Sequence record: AP012535
Source of the DNA: Stx2-converting phage Stx2a_WGPS9
DNA: 56,224 nucleotides
Reading direction: 5' to 3' (one strand)
The first letter of the stretch is position 1, and each line of letters begins with the position of its first letter. Positions 42,001 to 54,000 of this stretch are shown here, piece after piece. Made by a program: the position numbers.

Positions 42001-45000
42001 AACTGGTGGCAGCGTAAGGGGGCAATATGGGATACGGTTTACTGGATATTGCAAATCAGTCGCGGCGTGAGGCATTACAGGGAATAAGTGACGCAGACAG
42101 ACGACGTGAAGAAATTGAGGCTGCGAACAAACAGATGGCGGCGCAACAGAAAGCGCAGAACAAGCAGAATATCGGTACGGGCATTGGTACGGGGGCGGCT
42201 ATTGGCGCATCCGTTGGTGGTCCTGTTGGTGCTGTTGCTGGAGCAGTAATTGGCGGCATTGCTGGTTCTTTGTTTTAAGGAGTGGTGAATGAGCGGATTT
42301 GCACAGGGGTTACTTGCCGGATTCAGCACCGTTGACCAGGCAATGACCCGTCGTAAGGAGCTTGGTCTGCGTGAAGCACAGCTTGCCCGGCAACAGAAAA
42401 ATAACGAGCGCGATTTTGAGTTTGCGCAGTCTCAGTTTGAACATAATAAAAACGTTGATCAGCGGAACTTTGATTACAGAGCCAAAGTTGACGACCGTAA
42501 TTATGCACTGAAGGAGAGGGAGTTTAACGCTAACCAGAATTACCGGAATGCGTCACTGGGTATGGAGCAGCAGCGACTCCAGTTGCAGAAATACAACCAG
42601 CGACGGCTTGAGTATAACGATATGATTGCCCATAGCCAGCCACTAATGGAAGCGCTTGGAAAAGCAATTGAGGCTGGCGATCAGGAGGCTGCAACGCGTC
42701 TGTTCGGGCAGCTGCCAAAGGGACATCCATTAATTCTTATGTCAAACGAAGGCTATGCAGCGAAAGCGGGTCAGGCCGTGATCAACCTGCAAAAAATCTT
42801 TGGTGATAAGCCGGACATGGCGATCGATTCGCTGAATACCCCGGAAAATCTCGATGTGCTTTCCGGCGTGTTTGCCCCGGAACTACAACAGCGTATTGGC
42901 ATGCCTGATTCAACCGGGGACAAAACGATAAAAGAGGCCAGGATTGGCAGTATCGTACCAGCGCAGCAGGAAGGGTACGTACTTATTGGCCTTGATCTCA
43001 CATACAGCGATGGCTCCACCGCGCATAAACCTGTAACAGAATACGGCAGTGCGCACCCTGATGATCAAACCGTGCTGGCGATACCCGTTGATAAGGCTAT
43101 CGCTCAGGTCAGGGATCGCAGCAAATTTGCAGAGATATCGAAAAATTATGGTTATTTTATGCCGAAGCAGCAGGGACTTTCTCTGAAAGAGCTTCAGAAG
43201 GGGGCCAGCAACGTAGCGGCGGACGCGATCAAGAATGGCGGTAATGCTCAGGCTGCGGTGGATGAATATTATGCTGCGACTGGTTCACAACCGCATCAAC
43301 AGAAAATTCAGCAACAAAAACTTCAGCAACAGGTTATCAACTGGGCGGGAGATGATCCTGACAAGCTGTCATTTGCCAGAAATGTAGCGGCCCGTCAGCC
43401 TGAAATGCTGGAACCTCAGAATCAGAAATTGCTGGAGAACGGGTATGCGAATTTTCTCCGTATTCAAAAGGCCAGGGGGGAACAGGCCAGAGATGAAAGT
43501 GCTTCATCTGCATCTCAGTTTATCCGTGGACTGAAACAGAATTACGCCCAGTAATTCACGATATTCCATTAATACCATTTCCTGATGCCCGGCCATTGTG
43601 CCGGGGTTTTTTTATGGAGTCTGTATGGCCTATTCAGAGGAACAGCGTCCTGAGGCGCAACTCGGTAACCAGAATCGTAACAGCCTGAACATTCAGCAAC
43701 CCGGCGAAACTGACAGCTATGAAGCATTTTTCTCTGATCCGAATCGCTGGAAGGATAACAGTACGTCGTTCAGCCTGGGCGATGTATTGCCAACAATGGG
43801 TAAAGGTTTCGCCCAGTCCGTCCGGGGAACAGGGGAAATGGCCCGTGGACTCGGTGATGCGATGATTCAGAGCCCGGTAAAAACAGGGGCGCGTATTTTA
43901 AATGAGTTCAGCCGTATGGGGCTGCCGGGTGTCGCAACTGTGCAGGATATTTTTGCCGGTGGCAGCAGGGGGGCTGATGAGGTCATCGATACCCTGCCTG
44001 ATGGCAAAAACGCGGTTACTGATATTGTCGGTAAAGGTCTGAAGGCAACCGGTAAGGCTGTCAGTGATGGTGCCAAAGCCACTGATGAATGGCTGACCGG
44101 TAAGATGTCGCCGGGTGCAGTTCGTGCGCTGAATACGCCGATGACCGAAGGCTATAATGATTCTGCGGTCTGGGTGGCGAAGGGTGTAAACCTGATTGGT
44201 GCGCTTGTACCTGATATGGTTGCTGGCGGTGTGGCTAGAAAGGTGGGTGATGTCACACTGCGAAAAATGCTGACCGCCGGGCTGGAGAAAAAATACATCG
44301 CGGCAGGGATGCAGCCGGAAAGAGCCACGGCACTGGCAGCAGAAGCTGTCGATAAAAAAATGCCGGATTTATTCCAGGCGGGCCTGATCACCCATTCCAC
44401 TGTAAGTGCACAGGGGCAGAGTGCAATGGCGGCAGCAGATGCTGTTCTTAATGCTGATTACTCTGAGCTGGCGCAGTCACCGAAATTTCAGCAGACGTTT
44501 TTGTCCATTGACGCCGACCCGCAGCACGCACAGCTTACTGATCGCCAGAAAATGGATCTGGCAAAAGAGCGTGTTGCCGATGAGGTGCGCGCGCAGCTGG
44601 CAACCGATCCTGAATTGCTGGCTGTGAATGCCATGGCGGCAAAACTGGGTGACGCACAACTGTTTAATCTGGTGACACGAGGCACAGCGAAGACCGTTAA
44701 AAGCGGCATTGTCAGAAATGCCACGGAACAGGGGGCGATTAATGCGGCGCAGGGCGGCTATTCACGCTATCAGGAAAACACGGCATTGCGTGAGACCGCC
44801 GGAATGGGTGTGTCACCGTGGGAGGGCGTGGCTGACGCAACGATCGAAGGTGCAGCCTTTGGTGCTGCGATGGGGGCTCCATTCGGTGCGGTTGCCGGAT
44901 ATCGTGGCAGACGTCAGGCCGCAGAAGAAACCGCCATGCGTGATGCTGAAACCGTGCAGCAGGACGACGCAGCCCCGCAACCAGAATCTGTTGATCCGGT

Positions 45001-51000: not shown

Positions 51001-54000
51001 GCTTGGCTCGCTTAACCGCAGCGTGGCGGGTGAGGATGATGACGGGGTTAACTGGTATGACAAGGTGCCGTCTCATGTGAAAGAGCGTAACCTCGTCATT
51101 ATGAAATCGGTGTTCGGGGGCAAGGCCGGAGAGTACTGGAGTATTCCTCTGCCTTACGGGTACAACGTTTTCTTCCTGCTCGGGCATACTGCTGAAGGTG
51201 TGGCGGCGGGTGACCTGACGGCGTCCCGTGCTGCCGGTAATGTTGTTGGTGGTGTGCTTGGTGCATTCAGCCCGATTGGCAGTGAGACGTCGGAAACACT
51301 GTCCGGGGCATTGCTGAAAAATGCAGCGCCGACCATTCTGCGTCCGTTTGCGAACCTTGCCATGAATGAAAACTTCATGGGGGCGCAGATTTACCAGGAG
51401 AACATGCCGTTTGGTACACCAAAACCTGACAGCCAGCTGGGAAGACGTTCAACGCCAGAAGCGTACAAGGCGTTTGCATCCTGGCTGAATGCGTTCTCAG
51501 GTGGCAGCCAGTACCGTCCCGGCGCGGTGGATATCACACCGGAATCGCTGAAATTCTGGATTGACTATATCTCCGGAGGGACAGGGCGCTTCATTTCCAA
51601 AACCACGGATGCGGCGGTGAAATCGCTGAATGGTATTGATATACCGGAACAGCAGGTGCCCTTCCTGGGGAAAATTTCGGGGGAGGTGATGCCGTATGCA
51701 GACCAGCAGAAGATGTACGACCGGATGACAGAGATTGCGCAGTATCACGCAGAGCTGAAGAGTCTGACCGGTGCAGAAAGAACGGCGTTCATTGACGAGA
51801 ACAACGGAAAATTGTCGATGAACGGGCTTATGCAGGATACCCGGAAGAGACTGAAGGATTTGCGTAAACAGCGTGATGCCATTTACGCCGACAGTACTCT
51901 CAGTCTGGCGCAACAGTCGGCGATGGTGAAATCGGTAGAGCGGGATATGAAAATTGCCGTGGATCGGTTTAACCGCGAGTACAACAAAAAAGTGGGAGTG
52001 GATTAACAGAAATGGCCCCGTACGGAAGTGCGGGGCTGATTAAGAAATAAACACTCATTGACCTGTAATAACCGGAGCTATTAACATATAGTCAGAAGAG
52101 CATTTCATGTGATACAGAGAGCCGATTTATGTTTAATGAAGAAAAAGTTGCGCAAATGGCAGCGTATTTGCTGAAAAAGCATGGCGGATCTATGCGTTTC
52201 ATTAAGCTGAAGCAGCAACGGTAATGGCGAATAGCATTTATGAGCAAAATAATCTTGATATGTTATTAGGCGATCTGATGTAACCGGGATGATGTTCACC
52301 CCTTATCGCCGGGGAACAATACCGGCAATCAGAATTGCGGATGGAACTATTCAGGCCCACGATGATATCGATGAGGAGTTTTTTCAGCCAGTATTGGATG
52401 GCTTTCTTATATCCAAATATACGCCATTTGACATCCTCCACGCCCTGAAGGACGGGGTTTTACAGCGCACCGGATAAGATTCGGTGTTTTGTTGAAAAAT
52501 ACTGTGATAACAAACAGAAAACCCGTCAGTAAGACGGGCTTAGCAAGCTGGGACGGTTACTTTAATAATTTCAGTGCCTTTACATCCACTTCAACACTGC
52601 TCAGGTCTTTATCAATTTCACCCTCAATTCTTACTTTGTCTTTCGGAGAAACATTCTGACCGGCCCATATGCTGTCATCGATATCCGTGACAATTGTCCC
52701 GCTATTGTCACGAAACTCATAACGTTCATCACCCACTTTTTTAACGATGCTCCCTTCAAGGATAACCCATGCATCATCCTTCAGTTCTTTTGCCTGCGCT
52801 ACTGTTGAACGCTCTGCTTCAGGCCCTTGGAAACCGCCCTGCTGTGCAAAAGCGCCAAAAGACACACCAGAAATAAGTGCTGCAATCAATACCTTTTTCA
52901 TTCATAGTCCTCTTTCAGAGATGAACATTCAAACAGCATTTTCAGTATGGTAAAGCGCGGGTGCGTTGAGGATGCCTGACACATCAGAGGTGGCGGGAGA
53001 TTACTCCCCCGCTTGGTCTCTTACTTCTCAGATTCGTAGTCTACGAAGACAGCGACCTCCGTCTGACCGGTTCGGATTCGCACCTCGCAGAGGTCTTTCC
53101 TCGTTACCAGTGCCGTCACTATGACGGTTAAACAGATGACGATCAGGGCGATTAACATCGCCTTTTGCTGCTTCATAGCCTGCTTCTCCTTGCCTTTCGG
53201 CACGTAAGAGGCTAACCTACATGTGTTCAGCATGGATTGAGCCTCAGATTAATGTTAAGCGTCTTGCCGGACGCGTAATGTTAACTGGGGCTTTTCTCTA
53301 TCTGCCGTTGGTGTTCATGCCCGAGGCAGATAGCCTCAAGCACCCGCAGCAATTCTACTTAACTCTCCTTTTCCCGCAAACCGTTTTTATCTCCAGCGAC
53401 AAATCGAATACACAACCAGCACCACCGCCATTACTGTTCCTACATTTGCGAATGCTTCAGGCCAGGTCATTGATTCACCTTCTGCTCAATATTTTTAAGG
53501 TCATTTTCCGCATACAGTATTGCAGTTCTTGCTGCCCGCAACCGTGCTTTGGTGTTCTTTTCTTCACGCTCGAGGCTGGCAACAGATTCTCGGAGCTGAT
53601 CGTGTCTGTTATGAAGCTGTCTAATCTCTCTCACCACAGCCTCACCATCGTTCGCACACCGCAGAACATACTGAAAAGGGTCCACAACACATCCGCACTG
53701 CAAGCACAGGATAACGTGATCCTGTTCATGAACCTCAATGGCCCGATGCTTACAGCTCTGTTGTGTGTAGTTTTTTCTGCCAGTTACTGTAATGTTCAGC
53801 AGCTTCTCTTCATCGCGCTTTGGCTGCACCAGTGTGATGATATTATCGCCTTCATTTTCCATCAGTTCACCTCCTGCGGCGGTTCTGGTAGCGGCATCCA
53901 GTGTGACGGTTTCCACGACGCACCAGGAATTATCCACCCATCATTAGCGTCAGGATGCCCCGGGATGTAAGTCGCCCACTTCATTCGCCAGTCACCTTTC

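Follow-up and report, generated by a model that had tools for sequence, protein, structure and literature searches.

We analysed the 56,224 nucleotides (nt) of the Stx2-converting phage Stx2a_WGPS9 (record AP012535; this whole stretch is called the window, and all positions are numbered within it), and in particular the giant gene that closes its rightward late, or virion, block. 933W-type phages spread Shiga toxin genes among E. coli. In this block the giant gene comes after the terminase, portal, capsid, tail and fibre genes and lom, and its open reading frame (ORF) makes up 15.0% of the window. This agrees with a preliminary description of the sequence, which had put it at about 15% and at the end of the virion gene cluster. 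The 8.4 kb are 100% identical to the Stx-converting phages ST2-8624 and 933W, which are 933W-type Stx2 podophages. The gene is intact in all 184 related phage records, where it was found at more than 80% coverage. In 933W the product (L0134) is annotated as 'LPD5 domain-containing protein'. Our results suggested that it is probably a packaged and ejected polyvalent protein, in which two domains that model as genuine zincins are carried on a chassis like that of the virion RNA polymerase (vRNAP) of phage N4. The gene and the parts of its product are listed below (aa, amino acids; HMM, hidden Markov model; AF2, AlphaFold2).

43625..52006, + strand: coding sequence of the giant, probable polyvalent/ejection protein, 2793 aa and stop; the same as 933W L0134 (ST933Wp72), Sp5 ORF80 (ECs1242) and phi24B gp47.
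43625..44944, + strand: N-terminal module, N1 (aa 1-440), placed by homologue position.
44165..44248, + strand: hydrophobic Gly-rich segment (aa 181-208), from hydropathy; aligns with N4 gp50 aa 225-255.
44393..44881, + strand: N1 core (aa 257-419), by HMM and HHalign homologous to the N-terminal injection/lipid-binding domain of N4-like vRNAPs.
44843..44899, + strand: glycine-zipper-like hydrophobic segment (aa 407-425), from hydropathy; aligns with N4 aa 421-439.
44942..46624, + strand: low-complexity linker rich in A/G/P/Q/E (aa ~440-1000, about 550 aa), from composition; no Pfam hit.
46775..47224, + strand: LPD5 (aa 1051-1200), Pfam PF18799, E 6.5e-45.
47168..47944, + strand: first predicted zincin-like metallopeptidase domain, MP1, of CLCA_X type (aa 1182-1440), from NCBIfam, conservation and model.
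47474..47488, + strand: first HExxH, HEWFH (aa 1284-1288), within GALAHEWFHSLDNYFG; on model helix 103-119.
48032..48664, + strand: second predicted zincin-like metallopeptidase domain, MP2, of the HExxxH clade (aa ~1470-1680); covered by no Pfam or NCBIfam model.
48275..48292, + strand: second active-site motif, HEIIHH (aa 1551-1556), within LRHEIIHHAMEH; fits both HExxH and HExxxH spacing.
48443..48445, + strand: codon of E1607, the invariant downstream Glu and putative third zinc ligand (160/160 copies); on model helix 422-435.
48872..49141, + strand: MuF-C / PBECR (aa 1750-1839), Pfam PF18819, E 1.3e-17, 64 bits against a cut-off of 27.6.
49232..52003, + strand: C-terminal module (C-module), mostly alpha-helical, about 930 aa (aa ~1870-2793), from tblastn and AF2.
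50957..51025, + strand: conserved, moderately hydrophobic helix followed by an acidic DDD..Y..P motif (aa 2445-2467); model helix 586-609.
51050..51667, + strand: LPD38 within the C-module (aa 2476-2681), Pfam PF18857, E 7.8e-48.

The preliminary description had placed an ORF of 2802 codons at 43598-52006. The frame is indeed open without interruption over these positions on the + strand, with 2802 codons when counted from the GTG. The start, however, did not stand: the ATG at 43625 lies behind a GGAG, and the 27 nt upstream of it are occupied by a terminator hairpin, which is noncoding although it lies inside the ORF first read.

43588..43613, + strand: intrinsic-terminator hairpin CCCGGC-CATTGT-GCCGGG with a T-run, after the upstream gene (stem-loop 43588-43605), from a terminator scan.
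43616..43619, + strand: Shine-Dalgarno sequence GGAG, 5 nt before the ATG, from the sequence.

The ATG at 43625 is the only start common to the window and 933W. The G-run in the hairpin (window 43601-43604) reads GGGG, compared with GGG in 933W (NC_000924), and this 1-nt indel puts a different upstream start codon in frame in the two phages. It explains why RefSeq gives 2806 aa from an upstream ATG whereas the mechanical start in the window is the GTG at 43598. PHROG 616, with a length of 2793 aa, aligned with the giant protein end to end, and the published length of Sp5 ORF80 is also 2793 aa (PMC5155283). The true start is almost certainly the ATG at 43625, with a product of 2793 aa.

Pfam recognised LPD5 (aa 1051-1200), LPD1 (aa 1361-1440), MuF_C (aa 1750-1839) and LPD38 (aa 2476-2681) in this product, with 64-164 bits against cut-offs of about 27. 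These families were defined in the polyvalent-protein survey of Iyer et al. 2017 (PMC5512222). Neither HExxH motif falls within any Pfam match. A single polypeptide thus combines the four families with two metallopeptidase (MPTase) domains, and it is encoded in a late, virion-packaging gene setting; both are features by which polyvalent proteins are recognised. The polyvalent proteins of Iyer et al. have the same giant multidomain layout and are encoded beside virion genes, and we count the 933W protein as a member. The zincin-like MPTase is the hub domain of this class, and the 933W protein holds two of them. LPD5, with conserved R1149, R1175, N1179 and R1182, is listed among the potentially enzymatic domains in the same survey and is possibly an enzyme.

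The MuF-C domain keeps H1752 and S1816 in all 25 copies compared. A His and a Ser form the PBECR active-site configuration according to Iyer et al. (PMC5512222), and the domain is predicted from these residues to have a metal-independent RNase fold and not to be a peptidase. The preprint on phi24B, which made a 'MuF-C metallopeptidase' of it, was mistaken in this assignment. No RNA polymerase family was found in the Pfam, NCBIfam or PDB sequence searches of the giant protein, nothing significant was found when the whole protein was compared with PDB sequences, and the segment-wise Pfam scan gave no wall-hydrolase domain (SLT, lysozyme, M23 or M15) at E <= 10. The protein had been described as mostly helical. 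This holds for the C-terminal third, but the peptidase region is mixed alpha/beta and aa ~440-1000 are of low complexity and probably disordered.

An AAA+ ATPase (COG1483) identity has been suggested for Sp5 ORF80. We found no [AG]xxxxGK[ST] pattern in the 2793 aa and no AAA family in Pfam or NCBIfam, and the ATPase suggestion is therefore unsupported.

The HExxH motif reported in the preliminary description is present as HEWFH and belongs to MP1. Over aa 1182-1437, MP1 matched CLCA_X (NCBIfam NF041907) with an E value of 9.1e-44 and 149.8 bits at profile positions 3-245 of 250. This score lies below the curated cut-off of 260 bits; by this profile match MP1 is a CLCA_X-related domain inside a larger protein and not an equivalog. 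H1263, H1284, E1285, H1288, D1291 and E1375 were invariant in 27 of 27 MP1 copies, which are 38-75% identical. Since E1375 lies inside Pfam 'LPD1', LPD1 is the C-terminal half of the MP1 peptidase domain. The Asp is invariant at +3 from the second His (HEWFHSLD); Lenart et al. 2013 wrote the consensus as HExxHxxxD, and Iyer et al. 2017 described an Asp at +3. According to Lenart et al. 2013 (PMC3650047), CLCA_X is a sister group to the CLCA zincin domain, which cleaves itself; its members are frequent in phages and plasmids, with an enrichment in proteins of more than 1000 aa. The alignment of MP1 extends over almost the full CLCA_X profile, and MP1 resembles the family in having an HExxH and an Asp downstream of it, but self-cleavage has been reported for CLCA and for no CLCA_X member.

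The preliminary description also contained a second His-rich segment. The segment exists, but it is more than a cluster of His residues: it is itself an HExxH within a second zincin domain. With aa 1440-1700 as the query, 1.84 billion representatives were searched exhaustively by HMMER; this gave 385 relatives of MP2 at E <= 1e-3, nearly all of them within proteins of 1500-6000 aa. Among 160 copies, E1552, the second His and E1607 were kept in all (160/160 each), H1551 in 158 and E1614 in 149. The spacing was HExxxH only in 152 of the 160, and fitted both HExxH and HExxxH in 6, including 933W. The HEXXXH clade was noted by Iyer et al. (PMC5512222). In terms of their clades, MP1 fits the one with Asp at +3 after HEXXH and an upstream His, and MP2 fits the HEXXXH clade, although the HEIIHH of the 933W lineage, unlike that clade, also fits the canonical HExxH spacing. 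Both are MPTases of the Iyer et al. class, and Pfam covers only the C-terminal half of MP1 and none of MP2. Pfam gave no hit on the MP2 domain in any of 40 family members, so MP2 is unannotated in current records; a segment-wise Pfam scan of MP2 gave a faint Peptidase_M76 signal only.

Two of the 160 MP2 copies read REExxxH and have lost the first zinc-binding His (P0127 aa 971-1141; P0145 aa 1841-2048), so some copies are probably inactive. A word-indexed search with MP2 returned only near-identical 'partial' E. coli fragments on contigs of about 1 kb, without diversity. The protein database holds hundreds of such 'partial' E. coli copies of the gene region 47942-48724, on contigs of 0.5-1.3 kb. 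The giant gene seems to be a frequent assembly break point in draft genomes of Shiga toxin-producing E. coli, probably because several prophages share it.

At the length and composition of the giant protein, about 0.035 HExxH motifs are expected by chance, and two are seen. Both are conserved in distant homologues and are therefore not chance occurrences. An AF2 model of aa 1180-1700, built from 40 sequences, had a mean predicted local distance difference test (pLDDT) score of 77. In this model each motif lies on a long helix after a small sheet, and the conserved Glu lies on a later helix (helices 103-119 and 194-212 for the HExxH and E1375 of MP1; 363-382 and 422-435 for the motif and E1607 of MP2). 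The structural neighbours of the peptidase region were anthrax lethal factor and its relative Certhrax, MtfA, Pro-Pro endopeptidases, M32 and M13 enzymes, Spartan, Wss1, minigluzincins, IrrE and ArdC. Modelling of both domains as zincin folds, which had been proposed as a check of the peptidase idea, indicates that MP1 and MP2 are genuine zincin-fold domains. As their catalytic residues are conserved, the peptidase sites are almost certainly functional.

N1 was found in 68 of 152 giant proteins, where it begins at residue 1-258. It sits behind an SLT domain in Ralstonia-type proteins, and it is also present in Vibrio phage D53 and Ralstonia phage Heva. The N1 profile matched N4 gp50 aa 114-445 with 64 bits (HMM) and other Schitoviridae vRNAPs with 62 (Salmonella TR2), 51 (Erwinia Ea9-2) and 42 bits (Ruegeria V17). 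The best of 500 shuffles reached 1.5 bits, and 22.8 bits with N4 were already obtained with the first-round profile. HHalign of N1 with seven vRNAP N-termini aligned aa 257-419 to N4 283-428 with a probability of 98.1% (E 8e-14). When single segments of N4 were used as queries against the set of giant proteins, there were no hits, and the link is visible only with profiles; a related-locus search with the N4 N-terminal domain found N4 itself only. These profile comparisons indicate that N1 is homologous to the N-terminal domain of the N4 vRNAP. The link appears to be new in the literature searched. Iyer et al. found nothing beyond N4-like phages in searches with the N4 N-terminal region (PMC5512222), and polyvalent proteins and Stx phages are mentioned in neither of the two N4 papers (PMC13434306, PMC13492108).

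The N-terminal domain of N4 gp50 has predicted membrane-spanning helices at aa 224-278, inserts into lipid nanodiscs and has been assigned to injection. The same domain is found in association with the periplasmic-tunnel protein, and a low-complexity linker comes after it. The C-terminal domain of gp50 consists of an HExxH subdomain and a helical subdomain of about 110 kDa without structural homologues, and is needed for encapsidation (PMC13434306, PMC13492108). The likeness to the 933W protein extends over the whole layout. Both proteins have 2800-3500 aa, are packed into the capsid of a podovirus and do not show up in virion maps, and the order is the same: lipid-binding N-module, low-complexity linker, cargo, HExxH domain and helical C-terminal region (about 100-110 kDa). 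They differ in the cargo, which in gp50 includes an RNA polymerase domain and in the 933W protein, which has no such domain, consists of LPD5, two peptidases and the RNase-like domain. In addition, no homologue of the N4 partners gp51 and gp52 was detectable upstream of the 933W gene, and the C-terminal modules of the two proteins show no detectable sequence relation; HHalign and HMM comparison with the C-terminal region of N4-like vRNAPs gave no homology (HHalign probability 1.9%).

The C-module was followed by tblastn with the last 954 aa as the query. It was found in a 3066-aa protein of Vibrio phages (41% identity), in the 'DarB-like' proteins of about 4500 aa of Ralstonia and Burkholderia (27%), in a 5391-aa protein of a Bacteroides phage (23%) and in a 1678-aa protein of Bacillus megaterium podophages (23%). 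LPD38 is also in the giant proteins of Vibrio D53, Ralstonia Heva and Bacillus Palmer. Among the proteins chosen solely for MP2, about 58 carry the C-module, and its end lies within 0-9 aa of the protein's C-terminus in nearly every case. The cargo upstream of it varies, with SLT, an Eco57I methylase, a helicase and LPD3 in Ralstonia Heva. The AF2 model of the C-module, for which the alignment was built from representative-library sequences, had a pLDDT of 79 and a predicted template modelling score of 0.76; compared with PDB structures, it had no homologue. Judged by its fixed position and by analogy with N4, the C-module would most likely serve to incorporate the protein at the portal or capsid and thereby allow the tail to be completed. 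The helix at aa 2445-2467 has basic residues on one flank and the DDD..Y..P acidic motif on the other, and no stretch of the C-module is more hydrophobic in 11 of 17 homologues. The helix may therefore interact with membranes.

The PHROG 'DarB-like' match covers aa 2351-2681 only, inside the C-module. The DarB-like giants of Bcep22-, JC1- and GP4-type podophages (PMC9144972) share N1 and the whole C-module including LPD38, are likewise encoded by the gene that closes the virion block and have been detected in virions, and the portal, capsid and head-closure proteins of these phages are related to those of 933W. Their cargo, however, is an SLT transglycosylase, an N6-adenine methylase, a helicase and LPD3, none of which is in the 933W protein; Pfam found no methyltransferase or helicase domain there, while Ralstonia Heva gp07 has both (Eco57I methylase, Helicase_C). 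As it lacks the DarB cargo, the 933W protein should not be called DarB-like. The proposed job is also like that of T7 gp14/15/16 and P22 gp7/16/20, which are stored in the head, exit via the tail and build a trans-envelope conduit. These are several small or medium proteins without peptidase or RNase cargo, with no similarity in sequence or fold to the 933W protein.

The gene, its class and its location in the virion are already in the literature, and in this respect the novelty is low. Mondal et al. 2016 deleted ORF80 of Sp5 and showed that it is essential; the mutants had normally shaped, DNA-filled heads that did not bind a tail-fibre antibody, and an AAA+ ATPase acting in tail formation was suggested (PMC5155283). 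The phi24B orthologue gp47 was abundant in virion proteomics and missing from all cryo-EM density, and was proposed to be an ejection protein with a 'MuF-C metallopeptidase' that degrades peptidoglycan (preprint 10.64898/2026.04.10.717836). The gp69 of Burkholderia phage JC1, a homologous protein of 4515 aa, was found in virions by mass spectrometry (PMC9144972). Together with the domain map and the conserved domains modelled as zincins, the presence in phi24B and JC1 virions supports the earlier proposal of a very large, packaged multidomain protein with a metallopeptidase. New here are two zincin domains that we placed exactly and validated, one of which had lacked annotation, the finding that the N- and C-modules are position-locked, the N1-N4 homology and two corrected assignments, namely the AAA+ ATPase and the peptidoglycan-degrading 'MuF-C metallopeptidase'.

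From these results we infer ejection, membrane insertion, a packaging role of the C-module, and peptidase activity with its substrates. The giant protein would be internal, present in a few copies in the capsid and expelled via the short tail before or with the DNA. It would be built as a chassis with exchangeable cargo: the membrane module N1 (aa ~1-440), the disordered linker of about 550 aa, the cargo and the C-module of about 930 aa. The cargo block would comprise LPD5, MP1 (HEWFH…D…E), MP2 (HEIIHH…E) and the RNase-like PBECR/MuF-C domain. During infection the chain would be threaded through the tail like a string of beads. N1 would insert in the inner membrane, possibly together with the hydrophobic helix of the C-module, as part of the ejection conduit, and the cargo would refold on the cytoplasmic side, where both zinc peptidases would act. 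In the version we prefer, they would cut the linkers of the polyprotein itself, in cis or in trans, and so release the modules, with cleavage of host proteins next most likely. Self-processing is favoured because it has been proposed for the polyvalent class (Iyer 2017, PMC5512222) and by analogy with CLCA, and we put it forward as a tentative possibility. The assembly defect of the Sp5 deletion would fit a C-terminal, portal-proximal structural role during head completion.

Several points weigh against this reading. The phenotype of the Sp5 knockout is an assembly defect; the loss of pure cargo would not be expected to cause one, and the protein could have a structural role in the tail. The N4 vRNAP, which has a comparable HExxH domain, was purified and is packaged unprocessed, with no peptidase activity reported (PMC13434306, PMC13492108), and this weakens the self-processing idea. 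The hydrophobic segments are only moderately so, with Kyte-Doolittle values of 1.1-1.4 over 19 residues, and an MP1+MP2 profile found nothing significant among PDB sequences. The C-module has no sequence or structural likeness to anything characterised, so its packaging role is argued from position and analogy only.

The same peptidases might instead attack host proteins after ejection, such as restriction, defence or stress-response proteins, in the manner of ArdC, IrrE/ImmA or anthrax lethal factor. Polyvalent proteins are usually interpreted as effectors that act early against the host (PMC5512222), homologous chassis proteins bear DarB-like anti-restriction cargo, and the lack of self-processing in the N4 vRNAP with its similar domain also favours this explanation. 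However, PADLOC gave no hit and thus nothing relevant to it, and without the gene no infectious particles are made even on a permissive K-12 host, which an anti-defence effector alone would not account for. We regard host proteins as rather unlikely main targets.

A protein with a mainly structural or assembly role in the tail or at the portal vertex, as Mondal et al. concluded of Sp5 ORF80 ('tail formation', with a possible AAA+ ATPase), and with secondary or inactive HExxH domains, would account for the DNA-filled heads without detectable tail fibre in the Sp5 deletion (PMC5155283). It would also agree with the loss of the first His in 2 of the 160 MP2 copies, which shows that the site can decay, and with the N4 C-terminal domain being a regulator and not a demonstrated enzyme (PMC13434306). 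Against this, neither a Walker A motif nor an AAA+ hit in Pfam or NCBIfam was found, and the giant protein is missing from the resolved tail and portal density of phi24B (10.64898/2026.04.10.717836). Moreover, sequences with no more than 23-40% identity keep every catalytic residue almost without exception, which points to active enzymes, and we consider a mainly structural protein very unlikely.

It is also highly improbable that a peptidase opens the conduit a way across the periplasm by cutting peptide cross-links in the peptidoglycan, as in the phi24B preprint (10.64898/2026.04.10.717836): ejection proteins of other podophages do bear wall-degrading domains, and the Ralstonia and Burkholderia homologues have an N-terminal SLT that 933W lacks and that something else might replace, but the peptidase of the preprint is MuF-C, actually the RNase-like PBECR domain, neither a Pfam wall-hydrolase family nor a peptidoglycan peptidase among the structural neighbours of MP1 or MP2 was found, and the two peptidases lie mid-chain behind the membrane module and the 550-aa linker, on the cytoplasmic side in the N4 model (PMC13434306).

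The preferred reading, an ejected polyvalent protein on an N4-like chassis, can be extended to other phages. The N4 vRNAP, the Stx giant protein, the Bcep22/GP4 'DarB-like' proteins and the giants of Vibrio, Bacteroides and Bacillus phages would then be cargo variants of one ancient podovirus chassis, with the zincin as a release or activation switch. This extension is doubtful at present. If it is true, the ancient chassis would comprise an N-domain that inserts into the membrane, a zincin peptidase and, for packaging, a large helical domain at the C-terminus, and the zincin switch would free or remodel the cargo after passage of the chain through the envelope. Each infection by an Stx phage would then bring an active protease and RNase package into E. 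coli, and several inconsistently annotated phage families would be linked.

The giant protein is essential, its gene fills 15% of the window, and no other part of the particle is so poorly understood. The domain map turns a 'hypothetical protein' into testable parts: two zincin sites, an RNase-like site, a membrane module and a position-locked C-module. For N1, the experimental framework that exists for N4 gp50 can be borrowed. Should the peptidases turn out to be needed for infection, they would offer a specific target for blocking the transmission of Stx phages.

The gene directly upstream may belong to the same system.

42289..43554, + strand: upstream partner gene of 421 aa, 933W p71 / Sp5 ORF79; essential (PMC5155283).

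Its product matched D53_0020 (blastp E 1e-11; locus L002 3986-5389), which is encoded by the gene preceding the giant gene in Vibrio phage D53, so the two genes form a conserved pair. The 421-aa product is possibly a second ejection protein. Its similarity to N4 gp51 and gp52 was not significant.

Other features of the window lie apart from this locus. To our knowledge, there is no dedicated head protease in 933W-type phages. A NanS-p-type esterase gene (DUF1737 + SASA + DUF6645) lies at 17643-19580, and its orthologue in phi24B, gp84, is reported to decorate the capsid and, after release, to be cut by an unidentified protease (10.64898/2026.04.10.717836). At 15574-16875, the tRNA genes Met-CAT, Arg-TCG and Arg-TCT stand directly before the Shiga toxin 2 A-subunit gene, of the ribosome-inactivating protein (RIP) family. 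The collagen-repeat tail fibre gene at 32426-34624 lies in the most GC-rich stretch of the window (0.59) and contains the long antisense ORFs 32834-33454, 33459-34148 and 33770-34624, which are probably composition artefacts of the Gly-X-Y repeats. Just past the giant gene, on the opposite strand at 53021-53295, are a hok/mok/sok-type toxin-antitoxin system and a YgiW/YdeI OB-fold gene (933W annotation), and in this region the GC skew flips.

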